The notes: generated by a model not told the origin, from the sequence alone. Shown: positions 16,071 through 63,504, counted from the first letter of the stretch. The stretch: 64,000 nucleotides of DNA from Callorhinchus milii (GCF_018977255.1 NW_024704743.1:4342001-4406000); one strand, 5' to 3'. A program made the numbers and translations.

Positions 16071-16121
16071 CTTGGCGGTCGGCACTACGGTGATCTTCTT
16101 GAAGTTGTACAGCGCCGCCAT
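16071..16121 (-). CDS. GTPBP4: GTPBP4/NOG1 coding exon 1 (MAALYNFKKITVVPTAK)
   Basis: Matches the NOG1 N-terminus (human MAHYNFKKITVVPSAK). ATG in GCCATGG context; GT donor at 16070-16069; 51 nt. Confidence 0.96.
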
Positions 16122-37722: not shown

Positions 37723-38014
37723 CACCCCTCCCCTCCGTTGTTTGTCGGCGGCCATCACTCGAGCGGCCTGAGGAGGAGGAGGAGGAGGAGGCCCAGGCCA
37801 GACCGGCAGGTGGGTGTTGAGGCCTCGCCGCCTGCGACGCAGGGTAGATGGGGGCGGCCGGGGTTGGTGGGTTGGGTGGGTGGGTGGAGGAGGGATGGGC
37901 GTTGTGGGGGAGGATCGGGCAGTCAGTGTGTACCCGCTCTCCTCCTCCTCCTCCCCCTTCTCCCGAGGCTTTCAACAGCCGCCCCGGCGGCATGGCGGCC
38001 GCCATGTTCCCGGG
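37723..38014 (+). promoter_or_regulatory. LARP4B: LARP4B CpG island with candidate non-coding first exons (donors CAG|GTGGGT after 37809 and GG|GTAACT after 38014)
   Basis: CpG-rich, (GGA)n tract, YY1-like GCCGCCATGTT, two donor-like sites, upstream of the LARP4B start exon. An N gap lies immediately 5'. Confidence 0.6.
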
Positions 38015-51227: not shown

Positions 51228-51325
51228 TTAGTATTGTAGTTCTGAAATGTAACAGCTTGTATTTTGTCCCACAGATCTTGCTGAGCAGAAAAATTCTCTC
51301 TGCAGAGCCAGAAAGCAGACGGCTC

Positions 51326-51406
51326 ATGACTTCTGACCAGGACACTAAAGTTGTGGCTGAACCGCAGGTGCAGCAAGTGCAAGAAGTTGTAGACAGTTCC
51401 CCTCTG
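51326..51406 (+). CDS. LARP4B: LARP4B canonical start exon, coding part (MTSDQDTKVVAEPQVQQVQEVVDSSPL); exon 51275-51406
   Basis: Matches human LARP4B N-terminus MTSDQDAKVVAEPQ; acceptor ttttgtcccacag; phase-0 donor GTAAGA. Confidence 0.93.
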
Positions 51407-54270: not shown

Positions 54271-55186
54271 TTATGCTGCTGTTTGGCTGGCGAAGAACAC
54301 CAGTGAGATTGAAATGCATTTTATGCTGTGCCTTTTTTGGCCGAGGTTTTCTGAACACTATTTAGGACAGAAAATCATAATTTGAAAGAGAATTTTTTTT
54401 TCTTGGTCAGCCGGGTGTCTGACACATGTGGAAACCCATCACTATGCTTCAGATTATCCAAACCAAATGGAGAATTCCATGCATCCCATCTACACATGGA
54501 ATTATCAGAGATGGATACCGGAAATAAAAATAAGTTGATTGATCGAAGTACAGTAGTTCTATTGTAGCTCTAACTTGGACACTTGGAATTCTCTCATCTC
54601 CCCATCGCAAAAGTGGTCCAGTCCAATAGTATACATTTGGGAAGTGTCTGGGGCAAAACTTTCATAGTATAAAGTTAATTTAGTGCCAGAAGGAAGAGTC
54701 AGCAGGGTTCAAAATCCCCCCCCCCCCCAATCACTTTGAAGTTGGCCAAATTCAGCAAAAAGTCGGCTGGATCTGACTCAATTACTTGTACTTTTTCACG
54801 ATCGCATTGCTGTTTAAGCGCCTTCAGCCACTGACTGACTGACTGGCAGCTCAGTCCCCAAATCGTGGCATCTCAATCGTCAGCCGACTGCCAGTCAAAG
54901 GCTGGACATTGCCAACAGCCCGTCTGACTGACTGGCAGCCCAGTCTTGTTGGGAGCAGACAGAGGGGTGAAGCCAAGTGATCTCAGCCCCTCCCCAATCC
55001 TTCGACCTTAAATCCTGCCCCTGACCGACCTCTGGAACGAGGTTTGATTGACAGGAGCACATGAATCTCAGCGCAGATTTTCATCAGCACTATTTTTGGT
55101 ACTTGGGTGTTGGCTCGTCTGTAGAGCAGTTAGTTCATTTCATAAGTTCTGAGCTTCAGTGTGTAGTGGCAGTGTCGTGACTCAGC

Positions 55187-58100
55187 ATGGGCTGCTGCTT
55201 CAGTAAAGAGAGGGGCCCTGTGGTGCCTGACCAGGTCGATGAGAAAACAAGCTTGTTGCAGAAGACGAGGAGAGAAACAGCTGAAAGCATTCAAATCGGT
55301 AGTGCCGATGTCATTGAAAAAAGTGACTTGGACGAGCAAGCTAAGGAATTCAGTAAGATGGAAACTCCACGTGCTTTCAAGAGAGGATGTGCTGGTGCTG
55401 ACCAGGGGCAAGGAGAGCTCAAGTCTAACCGGAGGAGAGTCTGGCCTTGGTTAAGTAATGAATGCTCTTACCAGAATGCAGATCATTTTCAGCACCCTGA
55501 GAATCTTGCAGAAGTCAGTGATTACTTCCTTACAAATGACTGTTCCCAATCAAATATGCAGAGGACACTGTGGGATATCTTTGGTTTGCCAAAGAGAAAA
55601 TACTCTATTAAAGCAGAGAATGGCACCTCAAAGAGTAAATGGCGAAAGTTGTGCACTTCTGCTGCTCCGTTGGAGGGGAATCCTGAAATGGTTGAAATTG
55701 CTGAGAACGTAACTGAAGGAATGCCTAATTCAACTGCTGAGAGTGATTCTCCTGGGAATGAGAAACTGCTTCGAACCCCAGAAGAAGTTCCAAGTGGAGA
55801 ATGTATGGAGAGTTGTCAAACGAGTGGTGAGATTTCCCGCGCACAGCAGCAAAATATTTCATGTCATTTAGTGACTGAGTTTCATTTTGCTAAAAATAAA
55901 AAGCCCGAGGAAATTGAAGGGATTAAAACGTGGAGGCAAAACGTGCAAGAGAACACCTTGGATACCAGTCATCTGGCCTCTGAAATAAATATAAAACCCA
56001 GACCAAATGAATTCTACAGTATCTGCACAATAGATGTAGAAGATGTCGAACTAGATGAGGGTGCACCTGCTTTTACTTGTAGCACTGTTCCAGATATGCA
56101 TTGTTCAGCTGTTGCAGTGGAGAGAAAGCACAACCTAACATGGTCTGTCGATCATGGTGTGGACTTTTCAACACGGCCTATAAGCAGAGCAGCTGTATCT
56201 GAGCAAGGGGAGGCAGTTGAGCCTGAAGTAACGGAGCAAATAGAGGCAGGCATAATGACACCGCGCATTGTTTCCGCAGAAATGGACACTGACGGGCAAG
56301 CTTCTTCTGTATTGTCAAACCACAGGTTGAGTGTAGTACGGCTGCTTGCAGAGACAACTGAACGTGATACAGAAACTCTCAATGGCCAACCTAAACATGG
56401 AATGAAAGGCAACTTTGCGGAGCCTTCAGTTGCTGAGAAAACTTGCTTGTCCAAGAGGAACAACTTTATTAGTTCAGGGGACAATGCTTCGAAATACTCC
56501 AATGTTAGCAAGTTGTTAGAATACTCTGGTTGTGAGGGAAGGCAGATAACGACGGGATCTCTTGCACAAAATAACACTATTAAAGATACAGATGTGACTG
56601 CATATTTACCAACAGAAAGTGAACAAGTTATGAAACTTTGCGATGGAGATTGTCATATATATGGAGCGAATGCTAACAGTGGAATGCACTTGCAATGTTC
56701 TGATCCTCCTCCAAGGCCCACAATTCCAGATCCTGCATCAAAATCTGTAATTGGAGTTGAAAAAGTTTTCGAACCGTCACTTATGTTTGCTGATTCGGAA
56801 ACCTCTGACACGGTTTGCAAAGATGCTTGTACACAGAGGCTTGATGAGAAAAATTCAGAATCTAAAACTCTGCTGGATCTGAACTCAACTGAACAACTGC
56901 ACGGCAATGAAGAGATAGCGCCATGCAATCATGCGAATGACGAAAATCTGCCCAATGGTTTAACTGTAATGGGACTGGAAGAATCACCGAAGTTGAATCA
57001 ACCGTTGCATTGTAATTCCCTGGCTGAAGGGATGCCTAATTCATACTTTACAGGAATTTCAAGCTGTTACTTCAGTCAATCTCTTTGTGATGAGCGAGCT
57101 CATAACCATTTAATTTGTATGCCAACTACTTTGCAAAGAGACTGCAGTGATCAAGGAGAGTTTGCCGATCGGCAGATTGAAACGGATGTATTCCAAAAAG
57201 GGGGACAAAATACTGAGTTTGATGCAAGTATAAACGGTTTGTACTCTGAGCCTCCAGAAGATAAACGTTTGGATTTCATGCAGCCAAGCAACCAATTGAA
57301 TGACTATTTGGAATCGATACCCACATTTGCTGTTCGACAGCAGCTTGAATCCAAAGTGAAGATTTTGAAACTCGATCCACATGCTAATGACAGGGTGCTT
57401 TCTTCTGATGATGACAGTGATTCTATCATTGTTGAGCAGCTGCAGAATCAAAACGACAGTTGCCAAGATGGGGAAAATCTTGACGCTATTTGCACACAGA
57501 ATGTTTTGCAAACTGGTATTACATTCGGTGTATCCGATACTGACTGCCATTCCAGCCTGGCTTCCTTAGAATCTGATGCCCCTAACCATTATGAATTGAA
57601 TAATTTGTGGAACTCTGAAAAGTTGTTCACGAACGCAACTAATCACCAAAGAAAAGATGAGCTCGATTACAGTGGCGCAAACATCAATAAGGTGAAACTG
57701 GATCACCAAGATACTTTGGCTTTAGCTGTTGATTCTACTTCTGAAGTAGGCAGTGAAGAGGATTTCACCATTCAGAAATGTTCTGTAATTCCTGACGTAC
57801 TGGAAAGCTATATGGACGTGTGCTCCAATTCAGGTGGAGATTTAGGCAGCCTGAAAGACCTTAAGAAAGAAATGGTCTTGAATGAAATAACTGAACAGAG
57901 TCTTCAAAGCAGTGAATCTGTATCCGAGCAGAACGCACCTGATTGGGAAGAAAAAGTGACACTTGGAGGTTCTGAAACTGTGGAAAATGCACAACTGAAG
58001 AGCAGAATTAACGGAAATATAAACGTGAATCTGTCAGAATACTGCAACAAAGGGACAAGTGAAGGCTTGAACCAAATATTTAGTACAGAGTTGACACAGT

Positions 58101-58840
58101 GCCCAGTTCTATGCAGGATGGAAAATGAAGTTCCACAAGTCCTATGTGACACAAGTGATAGAACCATGGAGGTCTCAGTCAAGAGTAGTAGTCTGTGCAG
58201 CTTCAAAACTGATTCAAAAAAGGGTGTTGAGTGTTTAAAAACGTCTGTATCATTGGAAAAAGGTGAGGCTTTTCCTTTTTCTAGCACTCCAGAAGATGTA
58301 TATGATTCTACTGAATTCTGTACATCCACAGAACTTTCTATAGATGAAAGGCAGATCGACCGCTATGCATCAACCCCTTCATATGAAATACCCCAAGTCT
58401 CAAACTTCACAGATGGTGATGAAAAAGAGAGATGTTTGTCTGAAACATCCACAAATAGTGAGAGATGTGTCATGGGGATGATGGAAGTTATTTTAGGGGA
58501 GTCTGGGGACAAACCTAAATTAGATGGACACGGTTTACAAAGTGAAATAGCCCCATCGTGGGCAGTCAATCAAGTTTTTGATACCGTGGCCAAAGATAGA
58601 TCTATGCATACATTTTCTGAACAGCTGAAGACTGATTCAGTCGACCAGCCAAGCTGTTTGTGGAATACCTGCTTCTCTGAAATTATGAAAGAGGTCAACC
58701 TACAACAAATGGGTGTAACCCAAGAATCGGTATCAAAGAATGTTGACACTTCAGTAGCTCTTATGGGAATATATCCCTACCCACTTTCCCTCTCCGAAAC
58801 CAGTGATGTTTGGGGATGGATTAATGAATATGACCAGACT
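55187..58840 (+). CDS. LARP4B: Giant alternative first coding exon of LARP4B (1218 codons; MGCCFSKE N-terminus; acidic, Ser-rich, probably disordered)
   Basis: ORF 55187..58855 is uninterrupted. Kozak AGCATGG; in-frame TGA at 55178-55180 upstream; donor ACT|GTGAGT at 58841 in phase 0, matching the phase-0 acceptor at 60244. Assignment to LARP4B is inferred from splice phase and position. Confidence 0.78.
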
Positions 58841-59406
58841 GTGAGTATCTCTTAACTCTGGTTTAAATCTGATTTGGGCTTTTTGCCATTTTAAAAAATG
58901 TCAATGCTGGTTTGCCTTTTCTGCTCAGCGCTTTATTTAAGATGTTTTGTGATTTCATTTGTGGATGACCAATCCCAAACTTAATCGCTTCAAATATTAT
59001 TTGAACTAAGTGCACTTTAGAAATAGAAATCAACATGGAATCAGAATTGCATTACTCTTTTAACTGCTAGATTTTTTNGTGTGTGTAAAGTAATTTACTG
59101 CGCAGTTTGACTAACTCCATGATGGAGTACAACATTTTACGTGACTATTACCCTGGTGTATATGAAAACAATGAATCTTTGTTATCTTGGTAGAAATTTA
59201 CACATCAATATTGTCCATTGTGTCAACTGTATTTTCTATTTCTGATGTTGCAGTGACGTGTTTGGGGTGAGGCTTGCTCACCACACATTTCCTGTTGGTA
59301 AATGGGTTTCCTAGACTAGTCTGCACTTTAGTGAGATTGATAGGTGGGAGTACAACAATTGACTATTGTGGTCTCCTGGAAGAAGAAACAATGAGACATG
59401 GAGTTA

Positions 59407-60243: not shown

Positions 60244-60379
60244 GACTCGGCCAAGGTTTCTGATTTGAATCCTAATGCCAAGGTATGGGCAAATCACGTG
60301 CTAAATCTTGATGCTGCTGCTAGCAATGCCTGTGAGACATGGGAAGAACCATTGGCAACTCCTGACACCTGCTCAGAGG
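60244..60379 (+). CDS. LARP4B: LARP4B PAM2w exon (DSAKVSDLNPNAKVWANHVLNLDA...DTCSE)
   Basis: SDLNPNAKVW is the LARP4-family variant PAM2 (human LARP4B SELNPNAEVW); ttttgcag acceptor; phase-1 GTATGT donor. Confidence 0.94.
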
Positions 60380-62013: not shown

Positions 62014-62207
62014 TTCTTTGAATGGGGTGGGGGTGGAGGGGGGGGGGCTCAAGTTGCCCCTGTAGTGAGCCAAAGTGTGTACATCTTGGTTTGTGAGCTG
62101 TTGAGCATACACTCCATCGTGGGTGTCTGGAATAATGTAGCGTAAAGCATAAATGAATAGATAATTTATATATTTTTAAATTATAATACACTTCAATGTG
62201 ATTTCAG

Positions 62208-62372
62208 GATTTGAAGCCATTGGTGATGCTGACAAGTCCTTCCAGAGTCCGTCACAGGAGCCCACCTTGATCGTTTCTCCCACTGAGCCTCCAGACCCGA
62301 ACGTTGTGACACTTCAATGTCCTGACTCTAGTTTTTCAGAATACGAGACGATGCATGGAACCAAGCAGACAG
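62208..62372 (+). CDS. LARP4B: LARP4B next exon (GFEAIGDADKSFQ...SEYETMHGTKQT)
   Basis: Phase 1-1, 165 nt; resembles human GSDANGDGDQ...SEYDSLPENSETG. Confidence 0.85.
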
Positions 62373-63504
62373 GTAGATCTTGACCCTGTGGTCTAGATTT
62401 CGCCAAGTACACTCAATACATTTTAATCGGCAAGCTATAAATGCACTGCAAAAAATGTGCAAAGAGCAATAAGTCTGATGCCACATGTTTAGGGAATGAG
62501 GTAAAATTGAAGAAACGTGAGCTTTGCTGCCTAGAAGAAGCTGGGAGGGGAGGAGACATTATTGAAATGAATGAAATATTGAAATTGGTTATTTGGTCTT
62601 TCTCTTCCCCCCATCTTAAAATACTGATCTGTACTGGGCTACAGTTTTCAAGACTTAGGTAGATAGATTTTTTTTTATAAGTGAAGGGCATTGCGGGGTA
62701 AAGGCGAGTATTCGGAGTTGAAGTACAGATCAGCCATGATCCGAGAGAATAACGGAACAGGCTTGAGGGCTACTCCTGTTCCTAAGATACTTCCTGCCCA
62801 AAAGTGCCTCACACAATGACGGTTAATTTAGTTGTATCCTCACTTTCAGAGGGACTTCCTCTTTTGATATCTATCAGATAAATCTTTCAGAACACAAGAC
62901 ATGCATTATATCTACAGTATTGTGCAATTAACAAACAAAATGTCACCATCATAGTAGCCATTATTGCTTTGTGCAGTCTTCAGAGATATTTTGTGGCGGG
63001 AGAGAGGTATTCTGAAAACAATATATTGCAGTCTTTCTCAAAATATTATTAATCTTCAGTTCCACAGTTAGCTGATATTTGATATCAGTTAAATGTTTTG
63101 TAAAGTATTTTGACTCGTACACATCAATTGAAAAATAAGGCTTTGTAACGTGTCCAGTCATTCCAGAATGAATCACTAATTTTAACGTTTAGAAAATTTT
63201 GAGTTTGGTGCTTTTTATTTGCTTTTCTTTCCCCCATTTGTATGTCAGGCAAACTGTGGTCTGATGGGCAGTTTTGCCCCCAAAAAAACACGGCCAAAAA
63301 AGTAAATTCTGTTTAAATAAGGAAGTGGACTTGGTTTGAGTATCATTTTAAATCCAGCATCCAATATAACTATTGTCGTAGGGAGATTATTGTTTGTTGT
63401 TGATGCAAATAAACACAGTCTGCTATTTTTATTAGTTGTTGTATCTTTGAATAATAATATAACAACACAGATGTGAAAAACTAAATCTTGGTAAAAGAGG
63501 GCCT

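Follow-up and report, generated by a model that had tools for sequence, protein, structure and literature searches.

A giant alternative first coding exon of LARP4B and its conserved, putatively lipid-anchored N-terminus

LARP4B, an mRNA-binding and mRNA-stabilizing protein, has two first coding exons, the giant one of which yields an isoform of ~1700–1930 aa. We analyzed a 64,000-nt window of the Callorhinchus milii genome (NW_024704743.1:4342001-4406000, one strand), in whose coordinates all positions are given and in which the giant exon occupies 55187–58840. This exon is real, spliced, ancient and already annotated as sequence; what has apparently gone unremarked is that this mRNA-binding protein carries a conserved, putative anchor of the LAMTOR1 kind. 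The best reading, which we hold about as strongly as we doubt it, is a sample-dependent isoform that keeps the PABP- and mRNA-binding core of LARP4B on late endosomes or lysosomes.

The open frame runs from the ATG at 55187 to the TAA at 58855 and comprises 1222 codons, 1218 of which precede a phase-0 GTGAGT donor that lies directly after 58840, four codons ahead of the stop. The acceptor ahead of 60244 shares this phase; joined to the core there, the encoded arm reads in frame into the exon that carries the PAM2w motif. The start context is AGCATGG, with an in-frame TGA starting at 55178, 9 nt 5´ of the ATG. The canonical first coding exon (51275–51406, ATG at 51326), which begins MTSDQD, has a phase-0 donor, and a hypothetical 51406>55125 join reaches a stop after two codons; together with the TGA at 55178, this means that the giant exon is not an in-frame continuation of the MTSDQD exon. 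Elsewhere in the window no stop-free stretch exceeds 369 codons; when the giant exon was shuffled 200 times, the longest open stretch averaged 113 codons and reached 205 at most, so the length of the frame is not due to chance. By within-window comparison the exon is repeat-free, with no blastn match to the remaining window, versus such matches in both flanking introns, over 1034 of 3718 nt (28%) upstream and 510 of 1403 nt (36%) downstream. All these properties of the frame, its start, its splice phases and its repeat-poor sequence agree with an initial annotation of the window. A transposon origin of the frame was rejected, as there is neither a repeat match in the window nor a Pfam family. 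The elements of the giant exon are as follows.

55187–58840, + strand: giant alternative first coding exon, coding part, 1218 codons (frame; identical to the arm of XP_007899383.2; run X4 contigs)
55187–55210, + strand: MGCCFSKE N-terminus with the acylation pattern Gly2, Ser6, Lys7 and Cys3/Cys4 (sequence pattern)
55241–55258, + strand: acidic dileucine EKTSLL, residues 19–24 (16–21 in most species; motif counts)
56009–56047, + strand: island FYSIC-x-x-D-x-E-D, a candidate short linear motif (conservation)
58337–58399, + strand: island D-x-Y-A-x-T-P-S-Y-E, weaker in placental mammals (conservation)
58763–58834, + strand: island YPY...WGW, directly before the PAM2w motif in the spliced protein (conservation)
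58841–58855, + strand: GTGAGT donor and four-codon read-through to the intronic stop (sequence)
55125–55186, + strand: candidate 5´ untranslated exon part after a putative acceptor (sequence)

Four of 13 listed public runs (X1, X3, X4 and X6) were aligned as contigs, for which depths are crude and the tissue is not given. No listed run is labeled as RNA, and the RNA nature of X1, X3 and X4 was judged from GT..AG joints; X6 has none of the listed joints and behaves as DNA. Record 17 of run X4 covers 58606–58840, 60244–60378 and 62207–62373, is contiguous across 58840>60244>62208 and continues for 2045 nt, which shows splicing of the giant exon to the LARP4B core. The predicted junction 58840>60244, found in this run only among the joints listed, supports the earlier proposal of an alternative first coding exon that swaps a 27-aa N-terminus for an arm of ~1200 aa. 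The depth of the giant exon in run X4 is ~18–24 (44 in the bin with record 17) versus 6.9 for the short-form joint 51406>60244, and the repeat-free intron bins, including the one after the 58840 donor, have zero depth. The short-form joint is present in X1, X3 and X4 and absent from X6. In X1 and X3, which come from one study, other than that of X4, it reaches 98.7 and 185.5, respectively, while the giant exon stays at 5–14 (22 in one X3 bin). The share of the giant exon thus differs between samples. At the 5´ side, an X4 contig starts at 55157 and an X1 contig runs unspliced from 54765; the acceptor proposed at 55125 is present in the sequence, but no joint among those listed enters it. An in-frame ATG at 55061 opens a 39-codon upstream open reading frame (55061–55180), which ends at the TGA ahead of the main ATG and occurs only in transcripts with sequence 5´ of the 55125 acceptor.

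RefSeq XP_007899383.2 (Callorhinchus LARP4B isoform X1, 1933 aa) contains the 1218-aa arm and the junction letter for letter. Isoforms X2–X5 also carry the identical arm, and isoforms X6 and X7 begin MTSDQD. The isoform is therefore already in automated annotation, and the exon is not hidden, as had been supposed. The human long form, found by cluster look-up, is UniProt A0A8I5KVU2 (1735 aa), which has the same layout; these entries represent the isoform described here but carry only a name. The gene is identified as LARP4B by the PAM2w motif upstream of the La module and by record P0001, which contains PF05383 and PF26088. Orthology follows from a core that is 63% identical to the human entry, the MTSDQD exon, the source names and a GTPBP4-like exon nearby. 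LARP reviews describe LARP4B as a protein of 738 aa with a short conserved N-terminus (PMC7928011, PMC4693254), and no description of a long or lipidated isoform was found in the literature, where subscription papers or supplements may hold one.

A whole-arm word search returned matches in the same species only, and phmmer with the arm against 1.84 billion representatives returned three (coelacanth, crocodile and turtle). Since the arm has diverged too far to be searched with directly, relatives were sought by way of the core under a length limit: a query of arm end and core, restricted to proteins of 1063–3383 aa, gave 277 matches, of which the best 120 were listed, and a search with the capuchin arm added 57 rows, some of them repeats. 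The listed long forms come from coelacanth, sturgeon, paddlefish, basal teleosts, frogs, newts, turtles, many birds, monotremes, marsupials and placentals. No long form of a shark, ray or jawless fish is among the matches listed (best 120 of 277); sharks and rays should be the nearest relatives of the chimaera, and their long form may have been lost, may lack annotation or may be concealed by sequence clustering.

An MGCC start is present in 97 of 119 listed long relatives; most of the other 22 are models with an internal Met as their start, and two owe their length to other causes. Among the 97 MGCC proteins listed, residue 6 is Ser in 96 and residue 7 is Lys or Arg in all. The acidic dileucine [DE]xxxL[LI] falls within the first 30 residues in 93 (at position 16 in 92), compared with 68 of 3082 other 30-residue arm windows (2.2%); the four misses are three frogs and one pigeon model. 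The Glu and the first Leu are invariant in alignment A1, and 28 species picked to span the tree show the same motif pattern when aligned. Between chimaera and human, the N-terminus is the only part of the arm that aligns significantly (E value 3e-4), and arms are 15–21% identical to the chimaera arm (alignment A2). Judged from these alignments, no part of this fast-evolving arm is better conserved between chimaera and human than the MGCC start with the acidic dileucine, and this N-terminus, which the initial annotation did not mention, is the main functional clue. At the other end of the arm, V-S/R follows the WGW island by 5–10 residues in 37 of 39 arm-only open reading frames of other species, many of them near-identical, which fits a conserved donor position; the tails past the donor are not conserved, in contrast to the position and phase of the donor itself.

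The two first coding exons had been proposed to be mutually exclusive, which holds in Callorhinchus but is not absolute elsewhere, as quail and whale models join both. Among the records concerned (P0049, P0220, P0223, P0225 and P0090–P0109), those of quail and whale connect the MTSDQD exon with acceptors inside the giant exon, and a donor within it, near residue 645, is used in many bird models. The giant exon therefore has internal splice sites that change the length of the arm.

The arm is acidic, as had been described (202 D+E versus 105 K+R in Callorhinchus). It is not of low complexity, however: its entropy is 4.13 bits versus 4.09 for the core, and it has no internal repeat. A Pfam search of the arm found no family, and the ESM Atlas gave no usable match with the N-terminal 45 aa or with human residues 1–300. 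AlphaFold2 modeling of residues 19–1218 with 54 alignment rows gave a mean pLDDT (predicted model confidence) of 37.7, with 1178 of 1200 residues below 50. This result, which comes from a shallow, diverged alignment, fits an arm that is probably disordered. The median arm length is 1060 aa over 124 models, with a range of roughly 1,000–1,200. Three islands stand out among the 97 listed MGCC proteins: FYSIC-x-x-D (91), YxxTPSY (64) and the W-x-W of YPY..WxW next to PAM2w (76). As read from the sequences, selection has kept the ends fixed, and length and charge approximately so, while leaving the middle free, which is the pattern of an anchor, a spacer and a few docking motifs.

LAMTOR1 is myristoylated at Gly2 and palmitoylated at Cys3/Cys4 and has a D/EXXXLL signal at residues 17–22 (PMC2882324), and its first 39 residues suffice for lysosomal placement of fusions (PMC7039192). 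In fission yeast, loss of the acyl sites disperses Lam1, and an LL-AA change spreads it to the plasma membrane (PMC5752196). The LAMTOR1 start, MGCCYSS with EERKLLL at 17–23, compares with MGCCFSR and EKTGLL at 16–21 in human long LARP4B. When a profile of 15 N-termini was searched against 177,635 PDB sequences, residues 1–22 of LAMTOR1 were the only start-to-start match. LAMTOR1, Ego1, Lam1 and the LARP4B long form thus share Gly2, Cys3/Cys4 and an acidic dileucine ~16–22 residues in. LARP4B differs in that it has no significant homology to LAMTOR1 and that its putative anchor is put by exon choice on an RNA-binding protein, not on a Ragulator scaffold; judged by sequence, the likeness of the LARP4B start to the LAMTOR1 anchor is probably convergent.

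We propose the following mechanism. Myristoylation of Gly2 and palmitoylation of Cys3/4 would fix the protein to the cytosolic face of a membrane; from the residue pattern, we consider such a membrane-anchored LARP4B very probable. The dileucine would be read by AP adaptors and, as in LAMTOR1, Ego1 and Lam1, direct the protein to lysosomes, late endosomes or organelles akin to them, and by this analogy sorting to late endosomes/lysosomes is fairly probable. The ~1000–1200-aa acidic, disordered arm would serve as a spacer with a few docking motifs. The LARP4B core binds PABP and 40S/RACK1 and stimulates translation (PMC4693254). Presented away from the membrane by the arm, this PABP-, RNA- and RACK1/40S-binding core may tether and stabilize translating messenger ribonucleoproteins (mRNPs) on the vesicles; overall, such tethering on late endosomes/lysosomes, suggested by the retained core, is about an even call. 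The broadest form of the proposal, that jawed vertebrates including humans make a lipid-anchored LARP4B with LAMTOR1-like sorting to late endosomes or lysosomes as a hard-wired, exon-switched tether of poly(A)/PABP-bound translating mRNAs, and thus a canonical RNA-binding linker in vesicle-coupled mRNA transport and local translation, is advanced tentatively, with slightly more doubt than belief.

Several observations weigh against this proposal, whose lipidation, location and tethering steps draw on sequence pattern and analogy. The profile match to LAMTOR1 is not significant (E value 0.74), and a chance hit on glycoprotein hormone alpha outranks it, so the resemblance is a likeness of design and not homology. 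The hormone hit itself was rejected, being internal in a secreted chain and without a dileucine. A single-sequence search did not recover LAMTOR1, and a Pfam search of the N-termini gave no LAMTOR family. The motif counts are dominated by birds and their rows are not independent; three frogs have L-F in place of L-L, and eight records (P0159, P0161, P0163–P0166, P0213 and P0214) have an in-frame ATG 6–21 codons before MGCC, which, if used, would mask Gly2. Among the joints listed, the long joint 58840>60244 is found in one of three RNA-like runs, X1 and X3 have an intronic background of ~3–6, and their contigs both end at 58879, 39 nt past the donor, whereas those of X6 continue. In one X4 contig, a run of T is longer by one at 58275, which would end the frame at about codon 1032; the insertion is absent from X1, X3, X6 and both RefSeq versions and may be an error or a rare allele. 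The 28 listed single-nucleotide polymorphisms (SNPs) in the frame, from 40 shown of 61, comprise 9 synonymous, 19 missense and no nonsense changes, and the resulting within-species ratio of nonsynonymous to synonymous polymorphism (pN/pS) of 0.56 means that constraint on the arm is weak. LARP4B has no occurrence in six supplements of a human N-myristoylome that contains LAMTOR1 (PMC4200515). This absence is a genuine negative for the cells studied, yet it is compatible with restricted expression, and the isoform may be absent from those cells. The cell line was presumably HeLa. A neuronal S-acylation supplement contained no match to LARP4B, but the control Lamtor1 was also without a match.

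The anchor may instead place LARP4B on another membrane: the protein would cycle with AP-2/AP-1 between the plasma membrane, the trans-Golgi network and recycling endosomes, and translation would be held at the cortex or Golgi. Signals of the form [DE]xxxL[LI] are read by several AP complexes, which agrees with such a route, and the LL-AA form of Lam1 indicates that dual acylation alone leads to the plasma membrane (PMC5752196). The spacing between anchor and dileucine (16–21 versus 17–22) matches the lysosomal signal of LAMTOR1, however, and we regard a different membrane as rather unlikely.

An alternative function at the endolysosomal membrane is disposal or sequestration, in which the long form would bring mRNPs with bound PABP, or material from stress granules, to lysosomes or autophagosomes, or would deplete the cytosol of PABP. 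Here the F-Y-S-I island, kept with the acidic residues after it in 91 of 97 proteins, could act as an ATG8-binding motif. Its likeness to an LC3-interacting region (F-x-x-I) is putative, however, and refers to the general consensus. LARP4B is found in stress granules, yet its known core promotes translation (PMC4693254), and a disposal role is unlikely.

The exon could also encode mainly a stand-alone acylated protein of ~1220 aa, made by use of the intronic stop and polyadenylation, with the LARP4B fusion as a minor by-product. The shared 58879 ends of the X1 and X3 contigs accord with this, as does a weak TTTAAA at 58862 with T-rich sequence behind it; the ends lie 12 nt after this signal and just before the T-rich run, a weak hint of intronic polyadenylation. 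Given the intronic background in X1 and X3, these contigs may be unspliced RNA or DNA. Arm-only proteins are filed in UniRef as separate ‘uncharacterized’ proteins in crocodile, turtle, gelada and colobus (P0135, P0136, P0143 and P0144), and human RefSeq model X11 (552 aa) is without the core. Run X4, on the other hand, contains the spliced form and leaves the intron bin past the donor uncovered, the donor is conserved in position and phase while the tails beyond are not, and long fused models are listed in all major groups, which together make a mainly stand-alone product quite unlikely. That the exon is transcribed but untranslated or non-functional, an annotation artefact, is highly improbable: one contig has the frameshifting insertion and arm identity to chimaera is low, but an open frame of ~1000–1200 codons with near-invariant N-terminal motifs persists in chimaera, bony fish, amphibians, reptiles, birds and mammals, and none of the listed SNPs introduces a stop.

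The remaining LARP4B exons in the window are as follows.

51275–51406, + strand: canonical first coding exon MTSDQD..., 27 codons from 51326, short isoform (joint 51406>60244; RefSeq isoforms X6/X7)
60244–60379, + strand: shared PAM2w exon (sequence, contig joints)
62208–62373, + strand: next shared LARP4B exon, in frame with protein record P0003 (contig joints)
37723–37809, + strand: probable non-coding upstream LARP4B exon, the 5´ side of which adjoins an N gap (inference from the CAG end)

The short-form contigs align 3 nt (CAG) 5´ of the 51275 acceptor. The end at 37809 reads CAG, which fits these contigs, whereas the donor end at 38014 reads GGG and does not; 37723–37809 is therefore the probable upstream non-coding exon. 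The observed/expected CpG ratio is 0.86–0.88 at 36.5–37.5 kb, and no CpG enrichment is present at 54.5–55.5 kb (0.39–0.46), on which ground a private CpG-island promoter near 55 kb was rejected. On the minus strand at 16121, a GTPBP4/NOG1-like first coding exon starts MAALYNFKKITVVPTAK in a CpG-rich stretch and is divergent from LARP4B; the listed GTPBP4-LARP4B fusion model P0123 begins in a like manner. We take this gene to be GTPBP4/NOG1, presumably next to LARP4B in human as well.

In giant ankyrins and big tau, a long disordered region comes from a single very large exon, and in AKAP7 and ABL1b the choice of first exon brings acylation and with it a different location. The LARP4B exon, in comparison, combines both features in one mRNA-binding protein. 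The attachment of mRNAs to animal endosomes and lysosomes is incompletely understood. In a 2025 review, the systems tabulated for vesicle-coupled mRNA transport are Rrm4/Upa1, FERRY, ANXA11 and those of plants, and the term ‘myristoyl’ does not occur (PMC12852828). Upa1 is a FYVE protein from a search that included PAM2 (PMC4466420). Like the proposed LARP4B isoform, Upa1/Rrm4 of Ustilago, FERRY and ANXA11 couple mRNPs to endosomes or lysosomes (PMC12852828); they attach through lipid-binding domains or Rab5, whereas LARP4B, a canonical La-module/PAM2w protein, would carry its own covalent lipid anchor. The animal linkers FERRY and ANXA11 bind RNA non-canonically or via granules (PMC12852828). 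If our proposal is true, a lysosome-type lipid anchor on a PABP- and ribosome-binding protein would make LARP4B a direct candidate for such a linker, and knock-down experiments on LARP4B, like the interpretation of its variants, would miss ~1000 coding residues in human where they rely on the 738-aa form.

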